From positions 1 through 27,305 of the forward strand of contig JBHJHA010000105.1 of the NCBI GenBank assembly GCA_050331235.1: a stretch of 27,305 nucleotides of DNA. Direction: 5' to 3'. The position numbers and the translations under genes were made by a program. This DNA comes from Leptolyngbyaceae cyanobacterium. GTDB lineage: Bacteria > Cyanobacteriota > Cyanobacteriia > Phormidesmidales > Phormidesmidaceae. Positions within the stretch are counted from its first letter, which is position 1; the number at the start of each line of letters is the position of its first letter. Positions 1 through 15,619 of the stretch are shown one piece after another. The notes under the pieces were generated by a model, which did not search any database, had not been told where the DNA came from, and saw only the letters and a list, made by a program, of their open reading frames with translations.

Positions 1-449
1 AATTCCATGATCGGCTGCTTTTGAACCCAGTTCCATCTGGGTATTTTAGTGTCTTCCAAGAAACTGCAAGTGTTGTATTGAATGCCATTCGCAGTGGTCT
101 GATAGTTGACGAGCATACTGTTCCTGATGGAAGCGTTGGAAACTTCTGGGGAAGATACTGGAATGACAATCAGTTTGATGAGAAGTATGGAAAACGGCTT
201 CGTCATCCGCACTTATATCCAAGTTACTTCTCTCAGGCTAGGGCTAATGGGTGCATCAAACCTTTTATCTATCCTTGTAAATCTCTGGGGGAGTTCAGGC
301 AGTGGCTTGATCAAGAGTATATTCCTAATAAGTTTCCTTCTTACCTGAAAAATAAGGCAGCACAAGGAGCTATTTCTTCCGCGAATATCAACAAGTTACT
401 AAAATCTGTTCAGCCTATCCAATTACCTGGAGGAGCAAAAACTGCTTAA
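1..449 (+). CDS. BstA-like phage-defence (abortive infection) protein, C-terminal part; gene starts upstream of the window
   Basis: The frame is open from base 3 (FHDRLLLNPVPSGYFSVFQE...), so TTG at 21 is not the true start. The motif series FHDR..VPxGYFSVFxE..VPDxSVG.xW..YW..KYG.R..H.YPxYFxQA..YP..LGEFRxW..YI..KFxxYL matches the C-terminal domain of BstA-family proteins as I recall it. The region is AT-rich and lacks HIP1. Confidence 0.72.
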   Translation, partial: FHDRLLLNPVPSGYFSVFQETASVVLNAIRSGLIVDEHTVPDGSVGNFWGRYWNDNQFDEKYGKRLRHPHLYPSYFSQARANGCIKPFIYPCKSLGEFRQWLDQEYIPNKFPSYLKNKAAQGAISSANINKLLKSVQPIQLPGGAKTA

Positions 450-450
450 A

Positions 451-816
451 ATGTTTACATGTTTAGTGATGGTGAATCTTCCGATCCCCGATTCAGCGAG
501 CAGCAGCGATACAACAAATTTTCGAATTGCTGAATTTGAATTCGATCCTGGTTGGGTTGTTGGAGAAGAAATACACATCAAAGATGCTTCATTGACAAGA
601 AACCGCCGAGATGGGCATCGTATAAGAAAAGAAACAACGCCTCGTTTTTCCTTTTTGGGACAAGTTATAGGCCGCAGGAAAATCGTTGAGGTCGATTTTC
701 AGGATGAAGGCAACCAAGTTTTTGACAAATATACTCTAGCCATCGAATTAGAGGTGGCAGATAAAGAGCAAATTCCCGACATGGTTGCCAAAATGAATCA
801 GTTCTTTGCTCGGTAG
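451..816 (+). CDS. hypothetical protein (121 aa), apparently co-transcribed with the BstA-like gene
   Basis: ATG lies 1 nt after the upstream TAA. Same AT-rich composition and a plausible soluble-protein composition. No family recognised. Confidence 0.7.
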   Translation: MFTCLVMVNLPIPDSASSSDTTNFRIAEFEFDPGWVVGEEIHIKDASLTRNRRDGHRIRKETTPRFSFLGQVIGRRKIVEVDFQDEGNQVFDKYTLAIELEVADKEQIPDMVAKMNQFFAR

Positions 817-898
817 TTCTGTCGGTTGGCACTGTCTTCTGGCAGAAGTTAGATGTATTAAAAGCGATCGAATGATTGGGTAGAATATCATGCCGTGT

Positions 899-990
899 CC
901 CTGCATCAATATCAACCGATGACTGGGCGTTGGCTTCTCGGAAGGGCGATCGCTTTGCGGGTGTGCTGTTTTTGGGGGGTGCGATCGCGA
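899..990 (+). repeat. HIP1-bounded inter-module repeat, copy 1
   Basis: ccctgcatcaatatcaaccgatgactgggcgttggcttctcggaagg-GCGATCGC(946-953)-tttgcgggtgtgctgtttttggggggt-GCGATCGC(981-988). By manual ungapped alignment it is 55/74 identical to 2511-2584, and 933-972 is 35/40 identical to 1769-1808. Confidence 0.85.
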
Positions 991-1042
991 TCGTTCAGCA
1001 TAGAGACTACAGTATGGGATAGACGCGCGATCGGCCCAAGCC

Positions 1043-1366
1043 ATGAAGCACAAGCAACGCAACGCCATTCTGGAAAGCGTGAAACAATCTCTTCAGACGC
1101 TTTATGGTGAGCAACTGAAGGCGGTAATCCTTTACGGTTCACAAGCGAGAGAAGACGCCCACGAGTTTTCAGACATTGATATTCTCGTGGTCTTAGATTC
1201 TGAAATCAATCCATATCGAGAGATCGATCGCACCAGTGAATTCATCGCCCAGCTTTGTTTAGACAACGACGTGGTGATTTCTCGACACTTCATTTCATCA
1301 GAGAAGTTTCAAAACGCCAGCAACCCGTTTCTTCAAAATATACGTAATGAAGGCATCCCAGTATGA
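1043..1366 (+). CDS. minimal nucleotidyltransferase (MNT) antitoxin of an MNT-HEPN TA system
   Basis: Pol-beta NTase motif LYGSQAREDAHEFSDIDILVV, 107 aa, ending NIRNEGIPV. Its stop overlaps the next start (ATGA, 1363-1366). Confidence 0.9.
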   Translation: MKHKQRNAILESVKQSLQTLYGEQLKAVILYGSQAREDAHEFSDIDILVVLDSEINPYREIDRTSEFIAQLCLDNDVVISRHFISSEKFQNASNPFLQNIRNEGIPV

Positions 1367-1742
1367 GTTCCGAGGTTTAGGCGTTCATCGCCAAAGCCCA
1401 AGACAGTCTGGCCGCATCCAAGCTGCTGACCGTCAACGGCCTGCATGACTTTGCCGCTTCGCGGGCTAATTACACTATGTTTTACATCGCAGAAGCCTTT
1501 CTTTGGCATAAGGGCTTATCATTTTCCAGCCATGCTGCCGTTGTGTCCGCCTTTGGGCGAGAGATTGCCAAGCCAGAGATCGTGCCTATCCAATTTCATC
1601 GGTATCTTTTGACGATCAGGATAGAAGAACCCAAGCCGACTACGAGATTGATGCCGACGCTAAATTGACGGCAGACGACGTTCAGCCACTTATCGAGCAA
1701 AGTGAACAATTTATTCAACTGGCAGAAAGTCTCTTGCTATAA
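1363..1742 (+). pseudogene. HEPN-domain toxin, inactivated by a nonsense codon and a frameshift
   Basis: Reads MSSEV*(TAG 1378-1380)AFIAKAQDSLAASKLL..DFAASRANYTMFYIAEAFL..FSSHAAVVSAFGRE..FHRYL. After a 1-nt frameshift near 1607-1610 it continues DDQDRRTQADYEID..EQSEQFIQLAESLLL* (TAA 1740-1742), typical HEPN motifs. Confidence 0.88.
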
Positions 1743-1768
1743 GACAGGATTCTGACTTTGCTCTCATA

Positions 1769-1822
1769 GCTTCTCGGCATCGCGATCGCGTTGCGGGTGT
1801 GGTGTTTTGGAAGGGCGATGCG
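1769..1822 (+). repeat. HIP1-bounded inter-module repeat, copy 2 (5'-shortened)
   Basis: gcttctcggcatc-GCGATCGC(1782-1789)-gttgcgggtgtggtgttttggaagg-gcgatgcg (degenerate second HIP1). Confidence 0.85.
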
Positions 1823-1890
1823 GCTTGGTGAGAGGAGGGGGGCGTTTTCATAACGGTGCGATAGGATTTACTGAAACATCTCGCACTAAC

Positions 1891-2112
1891 ATGAGCACCG
1901 CTGACACGCTGTATGAACTGGTTAAAACCTTGCCCGAAGAGCAAGCCAACCTCGTGCTGACGTTTGCCGAGTTTCTGCGGCAGCGACTTCAGTCCGATGC
2001 GGGCAAACAGTCAGAACCCCTCACTCAGTATTTCGGTACGCTCAAAAACTCCCCCAACTTCAACGAAGACCCCGTCGAGATCCAGAGAGCGATGCGACGT
2101 GAGTGGGACTAA
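1891..2112 (+). CDS. DUF2281-like antitoxin (VapB role)
   Basis: MSTADTLYELVKTLPEEQANLVLTFAEFL...FGTLK..DPVEIQRAMRREWD fits the typical LPxE..VLxFxEFL and RxEW pattern. It overlaps the downstream PIN gene. ATG at 1891 is preferred to TTG at 1807, which lies inside the repeat. Confidence 0.85.
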   Translation: MSTADTLYELVKTLPEEQANLVLTFAEFLRQRLQSDAGKQSEPLTQYFGTLKNSPNFNEDPVEIQRAMRREWD

Positions 2113-2476
2113 GTTGCTGTTGGATACCAACTTCGCAATCGGCTTGCTTAAAGGCAATGAGACCGTTCAGCAGGTTTTACGCGATCGCCCAATCTCTATT
2201 CAAGACTGCTCCTACAGCTTCATTACCCGAATTGAACTGCTGGGCTTTCCTGCTATTACAAATGCCGAAATCGAAAGCATTGCAACGCTGCTCAGCGCCA
2301 TGAATTACGTACAAATGAGCCAAGCTATTGAAGATGCCACCATTCAGATCCGGCGGCAATATGGCCTCAAAACGCCCGACGCGATTATTGCCGCTACAGC
2401 TAGCGTCCACCATTTAGAGCTACTCACTTTAGACCAACAACTTGCCAACCGGATGTCCGAAATCTCATCACAGTAA
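2099..2476 (+). CDS. vapC: VapC-family PIN-domain toxin
   Basis: A GTG start at 2099 gives MSGTKLLLDTN..SFITRIELLG..LKTPDAIIAATA..LLTLD. The conserved acidic PIN residues are present. Confidence 0.9.
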   Translation: MSGTKLLLDTNFAIGLLKGNETVQQVLRDRPISIQDCSYSFITRIELLGFPAITNAEIESIATLLSAMNYVQMSQAIEDATIQIRRQYGLKTPDAIIAATASVHHLELLTLDQQLANRMSEISSQ

Positions 2477-2510
2477 TCCAAAAGACAGCATCGCCGTTCG
2501 GATAAAAGAC

Positions 2511-2599
2511 CCCTTCATTAATGTCAACAGGAGACTGGGTGTTGGCGGCTTGGCATCGAGCTCGCTGTGCGGTTATGCGGTTTTGGAGGGCGATCGCGA
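2511..2599 (+). repeat. HIP1-bounded inter-module repeat, copy 3 (right border of the accessory block)
   Basis: cccttcattaatgtcaacaggagactgggtgttggcggcttggcatc-gagctcgc-tgtgcggttatgcggttttggagg-GCGATCGC(2590-2597). Collinear with copy 1; the first HIP1 has mutated. Confidence 0.8.
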
Positions 2600-2652
2600 G
2601 GACAATTAAAAACCTGCTCGATATCGGTGCCGAATTAACCCCCATTCATTAT

Positions 2653-4452
2653 TCAGAGCGACTCAAGTGCTTGCACCACGCAGTCGGTTTGGAGCAAGGT
2701 ATATTGCGCCGTTTGATAGGCCACACAGCGATCTCCAAGGGTTTGCAAGGCCGGTATGTTGCCATTCGCCAAGGCCGAAACCGCTTGACCAGCTTCTGGC
2801 TGATACTGCTGAATCCAGCGATCGCGATTCAGGGTGTGAATGTCGAAGGACAGCGGTTCTAACAACCAGTGGGTGACGCCGTATTGCGTAATAAAGTCGC
2901 TGACGACTTGGGGGTCGGCGCTGTATTGAGCTCTAATCAAGTCTCTGGCGCGCTGGCTAATTTCTGCGTAGTAGCCCACATGATAAGGGATGGCGATCTC
3001 CTGGCTGAGCAGCACCGACCGCTGAGCATAGCTGGGAATGTTGCTGGTTTCGACCGAGAGTCCAGCAATGAGGCTATCTTTGGGCTGCTGGGCCAGCACA
3101 CCATAGAGATCTGGAGCGTATCCCTGCGACATAGAGGTGGAAGGATAGTTTTGCATCGTCAGCGGATAGAGCACTACCCCAAGACCGAGAATAATGGTGA
3201 AGCCTAGGGCCAGGGCGGCGAAGCCCAACGAGACTGGCGAGGAGCGAGGTGGCGTCAGTAGGGCGATCGCCCAATTCAGACAGGCGTCGGCCAAAATCAC
3301 GACGACTATGCCCGCAGCAATGACGCCCACCATCAGTAAAAAGCGTCCCGTATAGCGACTGGGCAGATAAAGCTTGAACAAAACGATGTGGGCTGCAAAA
3401 AACCAGAAAAAGGCTGTCAGCAACAGTTTGAGCAACAAATCAAGGTCTCGCGTCACCGACTTGACTAACGGAAATGGGCGGGGCCAGCGCAGCATCAGCG
3501 GCAAACCTAGCGCCAGCAGGTTTGTCACGGGGGTTGTCGCTGTATCGAGGCGTAAGCCACCGCGCCCATAGAGTAAACCCTCCAACCAAGACGGTTTGAA
3601 GAAACTCGCCCGCCCCCCCGCAAAAAACTCAGGCATCATCAAGGCTTGAGCCCGGGTCATCGTGGGGCCAAATTGGCTGGTCGAGAGACCGTAATACAAA
3701 ATTACTGTGGTGGCAATCAGTAAACCCCCAAGGGTGATCTGCCGACGGTGGCGATCGCGCGCCCAGCTCCAGCGGCCTTCCCGTTGTTCTACCAGTCCCA
3801 AAACCAATACCCCTGCCGTAAGCAGTACCGCCTGGGGGTAAAGGATGCCCTGTAGGGCGATCGCGCCCCACGTGAGCCCTCGCGATCGCCGCAGCCAGCC
3901 ATATATAAACAGCAGCATCACCAGGTAAATGAATGCCTTGGAAGTTCCTGAGGCAAGTGTTCCGGTGTATTCCACCGATTGGGTCAGCAGCGCGGCGGTG
4001 ACAAAACCAGCGGCGGGCAACGCGCTAAATTCAAGAACGGTGAGAAAGGCGATCGCCCCAGTGAGGACAATCAATACTGGCGGCAAGAGTTTGCACAGGA
4101 GTAACGGTGAAACGCCCACGACTGCAAATAGTCGATAGATCAACACGTAGCCAATGGGCGACACCGACTGATAGTAGTCAGCGATCCAATCATTGACAAA
4201 CAGATCTGGGTCGGTGAACCGCAGCATCCAAACCACATGCTGGCGTGCATCATCGGCCAAGGCGTAGGGATCGCCAGCGATCTTATTCCAGCCCAGGACG
4301 GCGACCACGGCACTGTAGACCAGCGCTAAGCAAAACCAGACATAGACTCGGGGATGCCTAAGCGATCGCGGGGTCGGGGCCAACCAACGTTGCACTCCCT
4401 TGAGTATAGATACCCCCGAGCGACGGGAAAGGATTTCAGCCACAGCAGTCAA
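2653..4452 (-). CDS. polytopic membrane protein, possibly a GT-C-fold glycosyltransferase
   Basis: 599-aa ORF with about 10 or more hydrophobic segments, an acidic DDARQH motif in the loop after the first TM, and a soluble C-terminal domain. Rich in HIP1. The function is an inference and the TTG start is uncertain. Confidence 0.75.
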   Translation of the reverse strand: MTAVAEILSRRSGVSILKGVQRWLAPTPRSLRHPRVYVWFCLALVYSAVVAVLGWNKIAGDPYALADDARQHVVWMLRFTDPDLFVNDWIADYYQSVSPIGYVLIYRLFAVVGVSPLLLCKLLPPVLIVLTGAIAFLTVLEFSALPAAGFVTAALLTQSVEYTGTLASGTSKAFIYLVMLLFIYGWLRRSRGLTWGAIALQGILYPQAVLLTAGVLVLGLVEQREGRWSWARDRHRRQITLGGLLIATTVILYYGLSTSQFGPTMTRAQALMMPEFFAGGRASFFKPSWLEGLLYGRGGLRLDTATTPVTNLLALGLPLMLRWPRPFPLVKSVTRDLDLLLKLLLTAFFWFFAAHIVLFKLYLPSRYTGRFLLMVGVIAAGIVVVILADACLNWAIALLTPPRSSPVSLGFAALALGFTIILGLGVVLYPLTMQNYPSTSMSQGYAPDLYGVLAQQPKDSLIAGLSVETSNIPSYAQRSVLLSQEIAIPYHVGYYAEISQRARDLIRAQYSADPQVVSDFITQYGVTHWLLEPLSFDIHTLNRDRWIQQYQPEAGQAVSALANGNIPALQTLGDRCVAYQTAQYTLLQTDCVVQALESL

Positions 4453-4515: not shown

Positions 4516-5760
4516 TCAGGTCGTGTATTCCGCATTGATGCGCACGTAGTCGTAGCTAAAGTCACAGCCCCAGGCAATTCCCTGACCGCTGCCATGGCCC
4601 ACCCCCACGTGAATCGTGACAATGTCTGTTTCCAGATATTTGCCCTGGGTGGTGGTGGTCTTGAGATAGTTGCTGGCGGCAGCCCGATCAAAAGGTTGCG
4701 GTTGACCGTGCTCCATCAGCAAAAAGTCCCCGAGCTGAATACGTAGATCAGATTGCTCAAAGGCGGCCCCCGCCCGGCCTGCCACGGCCGCAATGCGCCC
4801 CCAGTTGGGGTCATGACCAAAAATGGCACACTTTAGCAGCGAAGACCCCGCGATCGCCTTCGCAACTTGCCGCGCGGCGGCATCATCTGCCGCGCCGCTA
4901 ACGGTGACTTCGATCAAACAGGTGGCCCCTTCACCATCCCGGGCGATCGCCTTGGCGAGATGATCACACACCGCTGTGAGCATCGCCTCTAGACGATCAG
5001 CTGCAGGGCCCGGCTCGGTGATGGCCGGGGTGCGCGACTCACCATTAGCTAGGGCCAGCACACAATCATTGGTACTCGTATCACCATCGACAGTGATCTG
5101 GTTAAAACTGTGGGCGATCGCGCGGCTCAGCATTTGCTGCCACAGAGGAGGCGATACCGTGGCATCGCAGGTCACAAAGCCTAGCATGGTCGCCATATTG
5201 GGGTGAATCATGCCGGACCCTTTAGCAATGCCCCCCACCCGCACGGGGCGACCGTCCCAGTCCATCTCTAGGGCAATCGATTTAGCCACCAAATCCGTGG
5301 TGACGATGGCTTGGGCTGCCGCCTCTGATCCTGTTTCTGATAAAGCTGCCGCCGCCTGGGGCAGATTAGCGACCAAAGCATCCATGTTGATCCGCTGCCC
5401 GATCACCCCCGTGGAGGCTACCAATACCGATTCCACTGGCACCTGTAGCGCTTGGGCGGCAGCCTCGCAGGTCGTGATAGCATCTTGCCAGCCTTGGGGG
5501 CCGGTGCAGGCATTGGCCTGCCCGGCATTGACCACTATCGCACGGGCCGATGGCCTGGCTTCTAGCCGTTGCCGACAGTAGTCTACACAGGCAGCACGGA
5601 CCTGGCTCTGGGTATACACGCCTGCGGCGATCGCATCCGTATTAGAAACAATGAGGGCCAGATCTGTAGCCCCCGAGGGTTTTAACCCAGCGGCGATGCC
5701 AGCCGCCCGAAATCCTTTCGGCGCGGTAACGCCGCCATCCACGATGTGCCACTCTGCCAT
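4516..5760 (-). CDS. argJ: bifunctional ornithine acetyltransferase / N-acetylglutamate synthase
   Basis: GGVTAPKGF, NAGQANACTG, STGVIG, AKGSGMIHPNMATML (autocleavage Thr), VDGDTSTND, ARDGEGAT, DPNWGRI, C-terminal INAEYTT. Confidence 0.98.
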   Translation of the reverse strand: MAEWHIVDGGVTAPKGFRAAGIAAGLKPSGATDLALIVSNTDAIAAGVYTQSQVRAACVDYCRQRLEARPSARAIVVNAGQANACTGPQGWQDAITTCEAAAQALQVPVESVLVASTGVIGQRINMDALVANLPQAAAALSETGSEAAAQAIVTTDLVAKSIALEMDWDGRPVRVGGIAKGSGMIHPNMATMLGFVTCDATVSPPLWQQMLSRAIAHSFNQITVDGDTSTNDCVLALANGESRTPAITEPGPAADRLEAMLTAVCDHLAKAIARDGEGATCLIEVTVSGAADDAAARQVAKAIAGSSLLKCAIFGHDPNWGRIAAVAGRAGAAFEQSDLRIQLGDFLLMEHGQPQPFDRAAASNYLKTTTTQGKYLETDIVTIHVGVGHGSGQGIAWGCDFSYDYVRINAEYTT

Positions 5761-8487: not shown

Positions 8488-8721
8488 GAGCTTCTCCGAA
8501 TCAGTCACTTTTATACACAATCACCAATAGTAGCTCAAACTAGTCTTGGCTGTAAATAACAGCGCTGTGGCAATAGGTGGAAATTTGGCGCGGCGATCGC
8601 ACCGCCAAAACCATACCCTCGCCAAGCGATCGCTATCTCAAAGCCGCTAAACGACGGAGCATCAAATCGGATTAAGGCTCTGTAAATTAAGCCTTCGCTG
8701 TGGTCGGCACTGGTCTACTAA

Positions 8722-9051
8722 GTAGCAATTCTAATTAAGGATGAGAACCAGGCTGGTTTTTAGGTGCATCGATGGTTGGCGGCGATTTTATCCAAGGTGG
8801 TGCTCCCTGTGGCATCAGCCAAAATCTTCTCTAAGGTGCAAAGTCATGCTTGATTTTGTTGACATCAGGGGAATAGGGAGCAGGAATTAATCCATGATGT
8901 CCAGCGGCCTCGGCAATTTCGTTGGCTTTCTCTAATCGATGAAACCGAGCATTATCTAATTCCGGAGTGAATGCTGGGGGCAAGACGGAACAGAGATGCG
9001 CTGCCAACGAGGTGTCAAAGATATCGCCGTGCTTCTGCCGGAGATCATCAA
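8722..9051 (-). mobile_element. IS630-family remnant (transposase C-terminus plus probable right end); not in the ORF track
   Basis: The minus strand reads IFDTSLAAHLCSVLPPAFTPELDNARFHRLEKANEIAEAAGHHGLIPAPYSPDVNKIKHDFA, then after a frameshift LEKILADA..TTLDKIAANHRCT* (stop 8760-8762). This carries the DNAxFH and PYSPDxNxIE motifs of IS630 DDE domains, with the catalytic E changed to K. TAGCAATTCTAATT at 8723-8736 resembles a terminal repeat. Confidence 0.8.
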
Positions 9052-13533: not shown

Positions 13534-14796
13534 ATGTCTCCTCCTGAGACTTTACACCAGCTATTTGATGCGGCTGTGGCGGCGGCTCAACCCCACCGCC
13601 GCATTCCTCAATTCTTGCCCCCCTGCCCTCCGGGCAAAACCGTAGTGGTAGGTGCTGGTAAATCGGCGGCAGCCATGGCCCAAGCGATTGAGCAGTCATG
13701 GACAGGCGAACTCAGTGGAGTTGTTGTTACTCGCTATGGCCACGGTGCTCCAACCCAATTGATCACCGTACTGGAAGCGGCTCATCCCGTCCCTGATGCC
13801 AATGGTATGACTGCTGCTGACCAGATTTTGGCTACAGTGGCTTCCTTAGGGGCGGATGATTTAGTGATTTGTCTAATTTCGGGCGGGGGGTCAGCGCTTT
13901 TGACCTTACCGCCAGCTGATGTCGGACTTGATATGCTGGTCGAGTTAAACCGGAAGCTGCTCCGGTCGGGGGCCGATATTGGTGAAATGAATGCCGTGCG
14001 CAAGAGTTTATCACGTTCTAGCGGGGGGCGGCTGGCGGCGGCGGCTTATCCGGCTCGGGTCGTGACGCTGCTGATTTCAGATGTGCCAGGGGACGATTTG
14101 CGCGCGATCGCCTCTGGTCCGACAGTAGGGGATACGGTGACCGCCCAGGAGGCTTTGAACATATTGCAATAATATAACTAGCAAGTCCCGGCAGCGATCA
14201 AGGCTTACTTGCAAAAAAACGCTAATCCAGTCATTGCGCCTGGTGACACGCGCCTGTCGACCACGACGAATCATTTGATTGCGGCACCCCAACAGTCCTT
14301 AGAAGCTGCGGCCACAACTGCTCGAGCATTGGGCTATACCCCCTTGATTTTAGGCAGTGCCATCGAAGGTGAAGCCCGCCAGGTGGGAACCGTTCATGCT
14401 GGCATTGCCCAGCAGATTTGGCAATATGAACAACCGGTCAAGCCTCCGTGTGTCCTAATCTCGGGGGGAGAAACGACGGTTACCGTTACAGGTCAGAGCG
14501 GGAAAGGGGGGCGCAATAGTGAATTTCTGCTTTCACTGGCGATCGCACTCAAAGGACAGGCAAAGACTTGGGCGATCGCCTGTGACACTGACGGCATCGA
14601 CGGTAGCGAGGACAATGCAGGAGCTCTTATCGGTCCAGATATCCTACAACAGGGACGCCAGAAGGGGCTTGATGCAGCCAAGTTTCTGTTGGGGCACGAC
14701 AGCTACTCTTATTTTCAGGCTGTGGGGGCATTAGTACAAACTGGGCCAACTTTGACGAACGTCAATGATTTTCGAGCCATCTTAATCGATGTCTGA
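13534..14796 (+). pseudogene. glycerate 2-kinase / TtuD-like (DUF4147 + MOFRL), interrupted by two in-frame stops
   Basis: GAGKSA, AAHPVPD, LISGGGSAL, ISDVPGDD..IASGPT, then ILQ*YN*QVP (TAA 14170-14172, TAG 14179-14181). The same frame continues with SGGETTV, GGRNSE, DTDGIDG, TGPTLTNVNDFR. Confidence 0.9.
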
Positions 14797-15619
14797 GCCC
14801 CCTAAAATATCGCTTTCGCCACCTGTGACGCCGCGGCGACTTGGACTCATCATCGGGAATACTCGGTTGCACTGGGGGCTTTTTGAACATGGCCAACTCC
14901 AGACGGTTTGGCATACGCCCCATCTCACTGCGGCCCAAGCTGAGCAGCTAATAGGACGGCGGTTTGCCCTAGACGCTTGGCGGTCTTTGGGCATCGATTT
15001 GGCCTTGACTGTAAACCCTTTGGAATGCGTAGATGGGGCAACAGTGTATTGTGCTTCGGTGGTCCCTGCTCAGGCAGCCCACTGGCAAAACTACGACAGC
15101 GTTTATCACGTGAGCCTGCAGGATATTTCCCTAGCAAATCTGTATCCAACCTTGGGCATTGATCGAGCACTTAATTTGCTGGGGGCAGGCGATCGCTATG
15201 GTTGGCCCTGTTTGATTATCGACGCTGGTACTGCCCTGACCTTTACCGCTGGTCACAGTAACCAATTTATCGGGGGGGCAATATTGCTCGGTCTCGGAGC
15301 ACAGTTTGCCGCTTTGGGGCAACAAGCAGCGGCTTTGCCCGTAGCTGCTGCGGACGGTGAGTTACCGACACGTTGGGCAGATAATACCCCAACCGCCATT
15401 CGCAGTGGTGTCATCCGAGGCGCGATCGCCACCATTCGAGACTTTCTCAATGACTGGCAGCAGGAGTATCCTCATGGCTACGCTGTCTTTACCGGGGGTG
15501 ACGGCAAGCAGCTTTATCAATGGCTAGAGCCCATCCTAGCCGACGCTCATGCTGGGGTTGATGAGCACTTGGCCTTTCACGGGCTCGGCTGCCTATTGAA
15601 AGCACCTGCTAGCCGTTGA
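14789..15619 (+). CDS. coaX: type III pantothenate kinase
   Basis: IGNTRLHWG, ASVVP, YPTLGIDR, IIDAGTALTF, GGAI, TGGDG. The start overlaps the upstream stop (ATGTCTGA). Confidence 0.92.
   Translation: MSEPPKISLSPPVTPRRLGLIIGNTRLHWGLFEHGQLQTVWHTPHLTAAQAEQLIGRRFALDAWRSLGIDLALTVNPLECVDGATVYCASVVPAQAAHWQNYDSVYHVSLQDISLANLYPTLGIDRALNLLGAGDRYGWPCLIIDAGTALTFTAGHSNQFIGGAILLGLGAQFAALGQQAAALPVAAADGELPTRWADNTPTAIRSGVIRGAIATIRDFLNDWQQEYPHGYAVFTGGDGKQLYQWLEPILADAHAGVDEHLAFHGLGCLLKAPASR

Follow-up and report, generated by a model that had tools for sequence, protein, structure and literature searches.

Several arrangements in which small accessory genes are held or exchanged as units have been described. 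Integrons, together with the integrase-less integrons termed CALINs, stack small cassettes in an ordered, permutable row at a single place in the chromosome, with abundant toxin-antitoxin and defence genes among them (Cury et al. 2016, PMC4889954). The PeSL cassettes of T4-type phages place accessory genes between short co-oriented repeats (Arbiol et al. 2010, PMC2839356), and the minimal mobile elements of Neisseria consist of variable genes that are swapped between conserved flanks by homologous recombination (PMC3787668). Here we describe an array in a Leptolyngbyaceae cyanobacterium whose cassettes are joined by a repeat built on HIP1 (highly iterated palindrome 1), a sequence whose role is described as having been open for three decades (PMC13756078). 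The window that was analysed is a stretch of 27,305 nucleotides, position 1 of which is the start of contig C105, with no sequence readable further left in this assembly, and it carries three copies of the repeat (R1, R2 and R3) around gene pairs of the MNT-HEPN and DUF2281-VapC types. By comparison with related loci, the repeat is a real, locus-specific element, and the array is an integrase-less one that exchanges cassettes at the repeat. The window probably holds the tail of a chromosomal toxin-antitoxin/defence array in which the co-oriented repeats serve as joints for the loss, gain and reordering of cassettes, likely by host recombination and not by an integrase.

The repeat and its genomic setting

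The repeat is modular. Part A, of up to 58 nt, precedes module B, which consists of HIP1, a G/T-rich spacer of 24-27 nt and a second HIP1; an optional module C adds a 24-nt spacer with a HIP1-like site at its end, and total length across copies ranges from about 50 to 110 nt. An earlier reading of the window, made from its letters alone (hereafter the sequence-only reading), had placed and co-oriented R1, R2 and R3 correctly (Table 1). Its identities (R1/R2 35/40; R1/R3 55/74) are exact, and its word GGAAGGGCGAT occurs at 940 in R1 and at 1809 in R2. The HIP1-spacer-HIP1 core that it proposed stands as an architecture, with spacers of 27, 25 and 24 nt in place of 25-27 nt, and with a perfect HIP1 pair in R1 only (R2 has a perfect left site only, R3 a perfect right site only). 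The extent given for R2 (1769-1822) is repeat and leaves out module C (1822-1844), and the string GGCATCG, reported as common to R2 (1776) and R3 (2552), is also present at 614. The statement that the remaining 24 kb held no other copy must be corrected, as a cassette-less half copy consisting of a lone module B was recovered on the opposite strand (E 6.5e-7 with the refined repeat model, E 1.2e-8 with a model of module B only).

Searches at increasing phylogenetic distance place the repeat at a single locus. BLASTN within the 4.8-Mb genome paired R1 with R3 at E 3e-9 and R1 with R2 at E 4e-7, the next best match being at E 0.009, and the well-scoring repeats among 6,511 HIP1 sites in this genome are R1-R3 and the lone half copy only. 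Thirteen perfect HIP1 pairs have a 25-nt spacer, of which the other 12 are unrelated to the repeat. Because models of module B only and of part A only yielded no further strong copy in the genome, a dispersed small repeat or a miniature inverted-repeat transposable element is ruled out. Of the 146 genomes of the family, 10 gave matches to a sequence-only profile of the repeat, namely the window's own, seven of the 13 others of its genus and one in each of two other genera. This search had been suggested earlier as a check for enrichment among toxin-antitoxin and defence genes, and 24 of the 26 matches do lie inside one toxin-antitoxin/defence array per genome; random scatter beside core genes was not seen. 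The repeat is absent from six of the 13 same-genus genomes, four of which likewise gave no match to the 3' half of nrdJ. In a 141-genome sample of the class, strong matches to the module B model were confined to the window's genus, and the matches outside the family were weak single or double ones (E 1e-4 to 1e-3) in eight genomes. The exact degenerate pattern was present in four stretches of a species-level genome collection (Halomicronema sp. CCY15110 and two metagenome-assembled genomes) and in five stretches on four metagenome contigs.

The array is anchored at nrdJ (ribonucleotide reductase; TIGR02505). Both occur on one contig in relatives G001, G004, G007, G010, G011, G063 and G147 and on metagenome contigs L085, L087 and L089. 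In the window's genome, contig C64 begins inside nrdJ and so carries a cut gene, and window positions 1-818 are 87% identical to the gene pair of L085 (BstA and an accompanying open reading frame, ORF), which directly follows nrdJ. From this match and the cut at the start of C64, we infer that the window array sits behind nrdJ, as do the arrays of its relatives. The right flank differs between species. The 599-aa gene bordering the array in the window had been taken by the sequence-only reading as the reference locus for strain comparison; it is ruled out as an anchor, since 0 of the 9 best-matching loci of relatives have a repeat within 1.5 kb and other arrays end at purB or other genes. Its product has no Pfam or NCBIfam match and belongs to a multi-copy family that is present in 29 of the 41 genomes searched. 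Long toxin-antitoxin/defence runs free of the repeat were also observed behind nrdJ in other genera (L117 in G019 and L100 in G073).

Read from nrdJ onwards, the locus consists of a single variable defence gene or gene pair of low GC, a decayed fragment of a REP-associated tyrosine transposase (RAYT), and then repeat, cassette, repeat, and so on. The slot after the nrdJ stop codon is occupied by BstA, an AAA ATPase, an AIPR/AbiU-like gene, a retron reverse transcriptase (RT)-Toprim gene, NACHT, or genes without a family match, and the five slot genes measured have 35-43% GC and zero HIP1 sites. Directly behind the nrdJ stop all 12 loci part ways within a few bases, even the two that agree at 97 of the last 99 nrdJ positions. 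At most loci the C-terminal part of a RAYT lies on the opposite strand and continues into the first repeat (a complete relative of this RAYT matches NF047646). The left extension of long repeat copies matches RAYT at E 4e-16 to 4e-37, the 107-nt core repeat shows a significant match in 0 of 20 copies in a profile test, and the in-frame resemblance of part A to RAYT is not significant. Derivation of the whole repeat from a decayed RAYT is not supported by this test, which backs it for the left extension only. The prospect, raised earlier, that the repeat might map to a decayed gene is thus borne out for the left extension of the long copies and not for the core. Every RAYT at the locus is fragmentary and is interrupted by cassettes. 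In two genomes (G079 and G072) the N-terminal part of RAYT is broken at its own internal HIP1 and fused to DUF2281-VapC, and the array of G063 carries a duplicate of about 50 bp of the nrdJ 3' end that starts at a HIP1-like core (L105 8270-8400).

Exchange of cassettes at the repeat

The clearest case of exchange comes from two metagenome arrays, L087 and L085, which are 94-98% identical over their common blocks and differ by a DUF2281-VapC cassette. L087 reads repeat-cassette-repeat, and L085 has a single repeat, flanked on its left like the first copy and on its right like the second. The crossover maps to 28 identical bp of module C with a HIP1-like site at their end, and the close-strain comparison that had been advocated for the locus therefore puts the breakpoint of a cassette indel inside the repeat. 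In addition, R2 of the window is a mosaic of two joints of G010, one to the right of the MNT-HEPN cassette and one to the left of the DUF2281-VapC cassette, with an overlap at 1782-1808.

Cassette order provides a second line of evidence. Nine cassette types were distinguished: a, MNT-HEPN; b, DUF2281-VapC; c, d, e and g, PIN modules; f, a DUF6972 pair; h, HsdR_N-like; and i, a HicA pair. The orders found include a b (the window), a f c b e, c d a b, c b f, f b a, g c b d h, d d g, and e d f. Of the 22 cassette pairs shared by two or more arrays, nine are found in either order, and the strand of each type is constant in all 51 cassette occurrences. The both-order pairs and the L085/L087 indel show that cassettes are lost or gained and reordered as units, as they are in integrons. 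The co-orientation of all genes holds in the window, as first read, and fails in relatives, where six of the nine types are antisense to the repeat. Of the 34 cassette junctions, 24 contain the repeat itself. A second HIP1 module chain, in which a 45-nt spacer is followed by a different 25-nt spacer, links cassette b to the next unit, and on the loci compared more than one repeat family serves as a joint.

The leader specific to the MNT-HEPN cassette follows different repeat copies in G010, G011 and G063, and it recurs in a contig of public run X1 with a loose end at 987. Contigs of the public runs have loose ends at 987 and at 1766-1767, where related MNT-HEPN copies have other neighbours, and reduced depth over window positions 1-890; both are weak hints. 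The calls of BstA, MNT, DUF2281 and PIN genes were confirmed by PADLOC and Pfam matches. The HEPN assignment holds through a homologue in L089 that matches PF05168, and the window's own copy is broken in this assembly. Contigs of runs X1 and X2 carry different letters at the HEPN stop, and one X1 contig does so at the frameshift as well; unbroken HEPN alleles probably co-occur in the habitat of these runs. Run X1 may stem from the very sample that yielded the genome, and no RNA run was listed as carrying the sequence. The 121-aa ORF that accompanies BstA has no Pfam, PADLOC or NCBIfam match, and its best Atlas score (0.89) is to unnamed clusters. Among 72,556 plasmid records, MNT-HEPN matches were found in two records only, and no record matched the repeat.

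Table 1. Coordinates of features in the window and at related loci. Unprefixed locations are window positions; G000 is the window's genome, other G handles are genomes of relatives, L handles are loci or contigs, C handles are contigs and X handles (in the text) are sequencing runs.
Feature	Location	Strand	Remarks
BstA-family anti-phage gene, 3' half	3..449	+	cut by contig start; PADLOC E 1.8e-52
121-aa ORF, function unassigned	451..816	+	accompanies BstA; same pair in L085
R1	899..990	+	part A (899-945), module B = HIP1 (946-953), 27-nt G/T-rich spacer, HIP1 (981-988)
Leader specific to MNT-HEPN cassette	989..1042	+	begins directly 3' of HIP1
MNT (minimal nucleotidyltransferase) antitoxin, cassette a	1043..1366	+	PF18765 E 4e-11; PF01909 E 4e-10
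HEPN toxin gene, cassette a, broken	1363..1743	+	stop at codon 6; frameshift near 1611
R2	1769..1844	+	short part-A piece (1769-1781), HIP1 (1782-1789), 25-nt spacer, degenerate HIP1 (1815-1821), module C (1822-1844)
DUF2281 putative antitoxin, cassette b	1891..2112	+	PF10047 E 3.7e-9
VapC/PIN toxin, cassette b	2099..2476	+	PF01850 E 3.3e-13
R3	2511..2599	+	part A, degenerate HIP1 (2558-2565), 24-nt spacer, HIP1 (2590-2597); right end of array
599-aa flanking gene	2653..4452	-	beside argJ, outside array; not the array's usual neighbour
Lone module B (HIP1-25 nt-HIP1)	8591..8641	-	cassette-less; upstream of ribosomal L28 gene
Short ORF near lone module B	8831-8983	-	presumably resembles an IS630-type transposase fragment
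Second HIP1 module chain	L089 ~5190-5395; L061 ~1475-1650; L059 ~14760-14925		
593-aa retron type I-C-like RT-Toprim fusion	L055 12319-14100		slot behind nrdJ in G004
Slot genes, candidate defence genes	L051 16758-19075		399 + 376 aa; weak or no family match
Slot genes, candidate defence genes	L148 2103-3544		153 + 288 aa; weak or no family match
Slot gene, candidate defence gene	L087 310-1545		411 aa; N-terminal restriction-endonuclease-like match
RAYT-cassette b fusion	L149 633-935 (G079); L150 ~4830-4960 (G072)		
Integron-integrase genes over cut-off	G010:C164, C180, C110; G011:C1		

Probable host recombination and its competitors

The two ends of the joints behave differently. In an automated test of where shared sequence ends, run at eight settings on 33 junctions (3 of 36 were duplicates and were dropped), exits from repeat to cassette lay near HIP1 at 12-25 of the 33 junctions, against a background of 16-26%, and entries into the repeat lay near HIP1 at 6-12 of 33, with no enrichment. 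A first automated count of exits, with the duplicates still included, had given 13 of 36 at HIP1. HIP1 is likely to be the short joint of exchange; the RAYT of G079, broken at its own HIP1, and the nrdJ duplicate of G063, which starts at a HIP1-like core, also point to it.

A sequence of events that would generate such joints can be proposed. A RAYT/REP element may once have inserted behind nrdJ and then decayed. DNA taken up by natural transformation would find its anchor at one end in nrdJ, in the RAYT remnant or in a copy of the repeat, and would close at the other end at HIP1 microhomology. Such homology-facilitated illegitimate recombination, which combines a one-sided anchor with a short illegitimate joint, is described as documented in other competent bacteria (PMC6382021). 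One-sided closure would duplicate part of the anchor and leave direct repeats that are ragged on the left and end in HIP1 on the right. A cassette with a copy on either side could then be excised by crossing over between the two, or a donor copy could insert the cassette at another joint; copy-to-copy crossovers would permute the order of cassettes and could not flip their strand, and toxin-antitoxin pairs would slow cassette loss. The natural transformation families dprA and comEC are present, and HIP1 has been reported to raise transformation in two model strains (PMC13756078).

Several observations weigh against exchange at the repeat by host recombination. HIP1 is degenerate in many copies, with a perfect left site in 19 of 30 and a perfect right site in 16 of 30. 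Part of the enrichment of exits at HIP1 follows from the design of modules B and C, which have HIP1 at their borders, and junctions from kin are not independent. Only one close-strain indel was resolved, and it is unpolarised. The repeat is missing from 10 of the 34 junctions: three of these have the different HIP1 module chain, one has a deletion inside a gene, and six have neither. A neighbour-tracking test of 32 of the 40 copies (near-clonal L085 and G013 dropped) was mostly negative for the earlier view of the copies as recombinational mosaics, which R2 does bear out: part A does not vary with the cassette upstream of it (p 0.28), and module B follows the downstream cassette weakly (p 0.015, one of four tests). 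Perfect runs common to neighbouring copies measure 9-28 bp, with a median of 14. Most are shorter than the 25-35 bp given for RecA transformation in B. subtilis (PMC6382021), and excision may therefore proceed slowly today. The assembled contigs of four public runs, all from one study, showed no recombinant joint. The link of the window contig to nrdJ runs through L085 and C64, with no direct read-through, and the contigs of the public runs held no readable bridge from C64 to the window contig. Finally, toxin-antitoxin genes lie behind nrdJ without the repeat in G005, G073 and G019, and the nrdJ hotspot is therefore independent of the repeat.

The sequence-only reading had suggested that the repeat may be the recombination site or insertion scar of a gene-capture array; no dedicated recombinase and no fixed crossover point were found. 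The most far-reaching reading would have the HIP1-(24-25 nt)-HIP1 modules serve a methylation-guided system for gene capture in cyanobacteria, not described so far, as its docking sites. This would be a functional counterpart of integrons, in which the genome's commonest palindrome replaces attC and IntI and anti-phage cassettes are stocked behind nrdJ; we offer it as a tentative possibility, with the balance tilted clearly against it. Rather unlikely, too, is a HIP1-specific recombination activity encoded elsewhere in the genome, with modules B and C as its docking sites and the array as its dedicated capture platform. Such an activity would account for the exits at HIP1 and for the spacers, 32 of 56 of which are 23-27 nt long, compared with 10% of the intergenic background, and which fall into three to four unrelated families of this common length. 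Site-specific recombination at HIP1 in Synechococcus PCC 7002 is also cited in PMC4390886. However, the 32 spacers are mostly copies of two families, HIP1 sites are often mutated, repeat entries and defence-slot borders are scattered away from HIP1, no candidate enzyme is linked to the array, and an electrophoretic mobility shift assay is reported to have detected no HIP1-specific protein complex (PMC13756078).

Host recombination at the repeats would also compete with a purely historical account, in which the repeats are inert traces that old insertions and tandem duplications left at a defence hotspot and have gone out of use. The copies are 65-90% identical, and likeness within arrays is no higher than between them (77.7% and 78.5%, respectively); several cassettes have decayed, and the hotspot occurs repeat-free in other genomes. 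The chimeric repeat of L085/L087 and the nine fixed-strand order conflicts nevertheless require repeated crossovers in the repeat, which makes this account improbable. A somewhat different relic, in which a RAYT (an HUH single-strand endonuclease) and REP hairpins captured the cassettes and the array is what remains of the RAYT-driven element, appears about as improbable. RAYT fragments head most arrays and recur within some, a REP-like inverted doublet flanks the RAYT remnant of G063 (read by eye), and complete-looking RAYT frames exist elsewhere in the genomes of G004 and G010. By contrast, all RAYTs at the locus are broken and interrupted by cassettes, the joints have no REP hairpin, and the queries used turned up no close RAYT in either G000 or G001.

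The repeat was also compared with integron sites and with structured or regulatory elements. The ends of attC sites follow RYYYAAC...GTTRRRY. This pair was found in 0 of 40 repeat copies on both strands; no stable hairpin forms on either strand of the repeat (z -1.9 to +0.9, 11 strands), covariation is almost nil (two-sided change in 3 of 21 consensus pairs), and Rfam gave 0 matches at E <= 1 in window positions 800-2700. Two promoter-like and three terminator-like sites were counted, compared with 1.6 and 2.0 in shuffles, and none is contained in any repeat copy. These motif, fold, covariation, Rfam and shuffle tests speak against an attC site, a structured RNA and a promoter/terminator element. 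IntI is absent from the window's genome (95.5% complete; three weak tyrosine-recombinase matches lie on other contigs) and is not over the cut-off in G001, G004 and G063; it exceeds the TIGR02249 cut-off in two of the five relatives tested (G010 and G011), unlinked to the array. A CALIN with atypical attC sites and IntI acting in trans is thus largely refuted and scarcely credible, even though integrons occur in cyanobacteria (PMC4889954), two relatives encode IntI and the cargo is of the toxin-antitoxin and defence kind, since the attC pair and a stable hairpin are wanting, covariation is almost nil, six of nine cassette types are antisense, and IntI is absent from the window's genome and not over the cut-off in G001, G004 and G063.

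Relation to described systems

A full-text literature search, with supplements and subscription papers outside its range, returned no paper on HIP1-jointed cassette arrays, and GCGATCGC combined with cassettes and anti-phage gave 0 hits. Among described systems, short elements tied to HIP1 and a deletion between two HIP1 sites (smtB) offer one point of likeness (PMC4390886, PMC13756078, PMC5861425). The small dispersed repeat SDR5 is described in these sources as a dispersed 21-nt element that splits a single HIP1 after its third base, in Nostocaceae only, whereas the array repeat, compared with SDR5 by description only, has HIP1 on both sides of a 24-27 nt spacer, measures about 50-110 nt and occupies one locus, with four copies in the genome. 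The RAYT remnant and REP-like doublet at the array head recall RAYT/REPIN systems as described by Bertels et al. (2017, PMC5581495), which differ in that the RAYT is broken at this locus and the array repeat is not a dispersed REP hairpin. The nrdJ-RAYT slot fits the pattern of the minimal mobile elements of Neisseria (PMC3787668); unlike these, the array is split by internal repeats into separately moving cassettes, and its right flank is not conserved.

The recombinants of this locus are natural and can be aligned, with HIP1 at one side of each joint and ordinary homology at the other, and the part of HIP1 in gene capture can therefore be tested by changing eight bases. The locus also illustrates how defence genes can be stocked in integron fashion with no integrase, possibly starting from a dead transposase. 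The nrdJ slot, in turn, is a place to mine for unannotated defence genes, beside the BstA, retron RT-Toprim, AIPR/AbiU-like, NACHT and AAA genes.

The closest parallels are with integrons and PeSL cassettes. Compared with integrons and CALINs as described (PMC4889954), the array has no attC motif, hairpin or linked intI, its cassettes lie on both strands and its repeats have ragged ends. The integron-analogous, non-attC array first proposed for the window thus survives as a non-attC array with an indel breakpoint in the repeat, and is qualified by the antisense cassettes and the 10 of 34 repeat-free junctions. In the PeSL system, too, a relative that is missing one gene keeps a single chimeric repeat, and no dedicated recombinase has been found in either case (PMC2839356). 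PeSL cassettes belong to phages and this array to a bacterial chromosome; PeSL repeats contain a sigma70 promoter and a terminator stem-loop, whereas the array repeat has no such signal above chance, is built on HIP1 and a RAYT remnant, and borders toxin-antitoxin and defence cargo on both strands. Excised mini-circles are reported for PeSL, and the array is known from assembled sequence alone. On this comparison, the array fails the defining sequence features of both systems and yet works like PeSL shuffling and, in its cargo and reordering, like an integron array.

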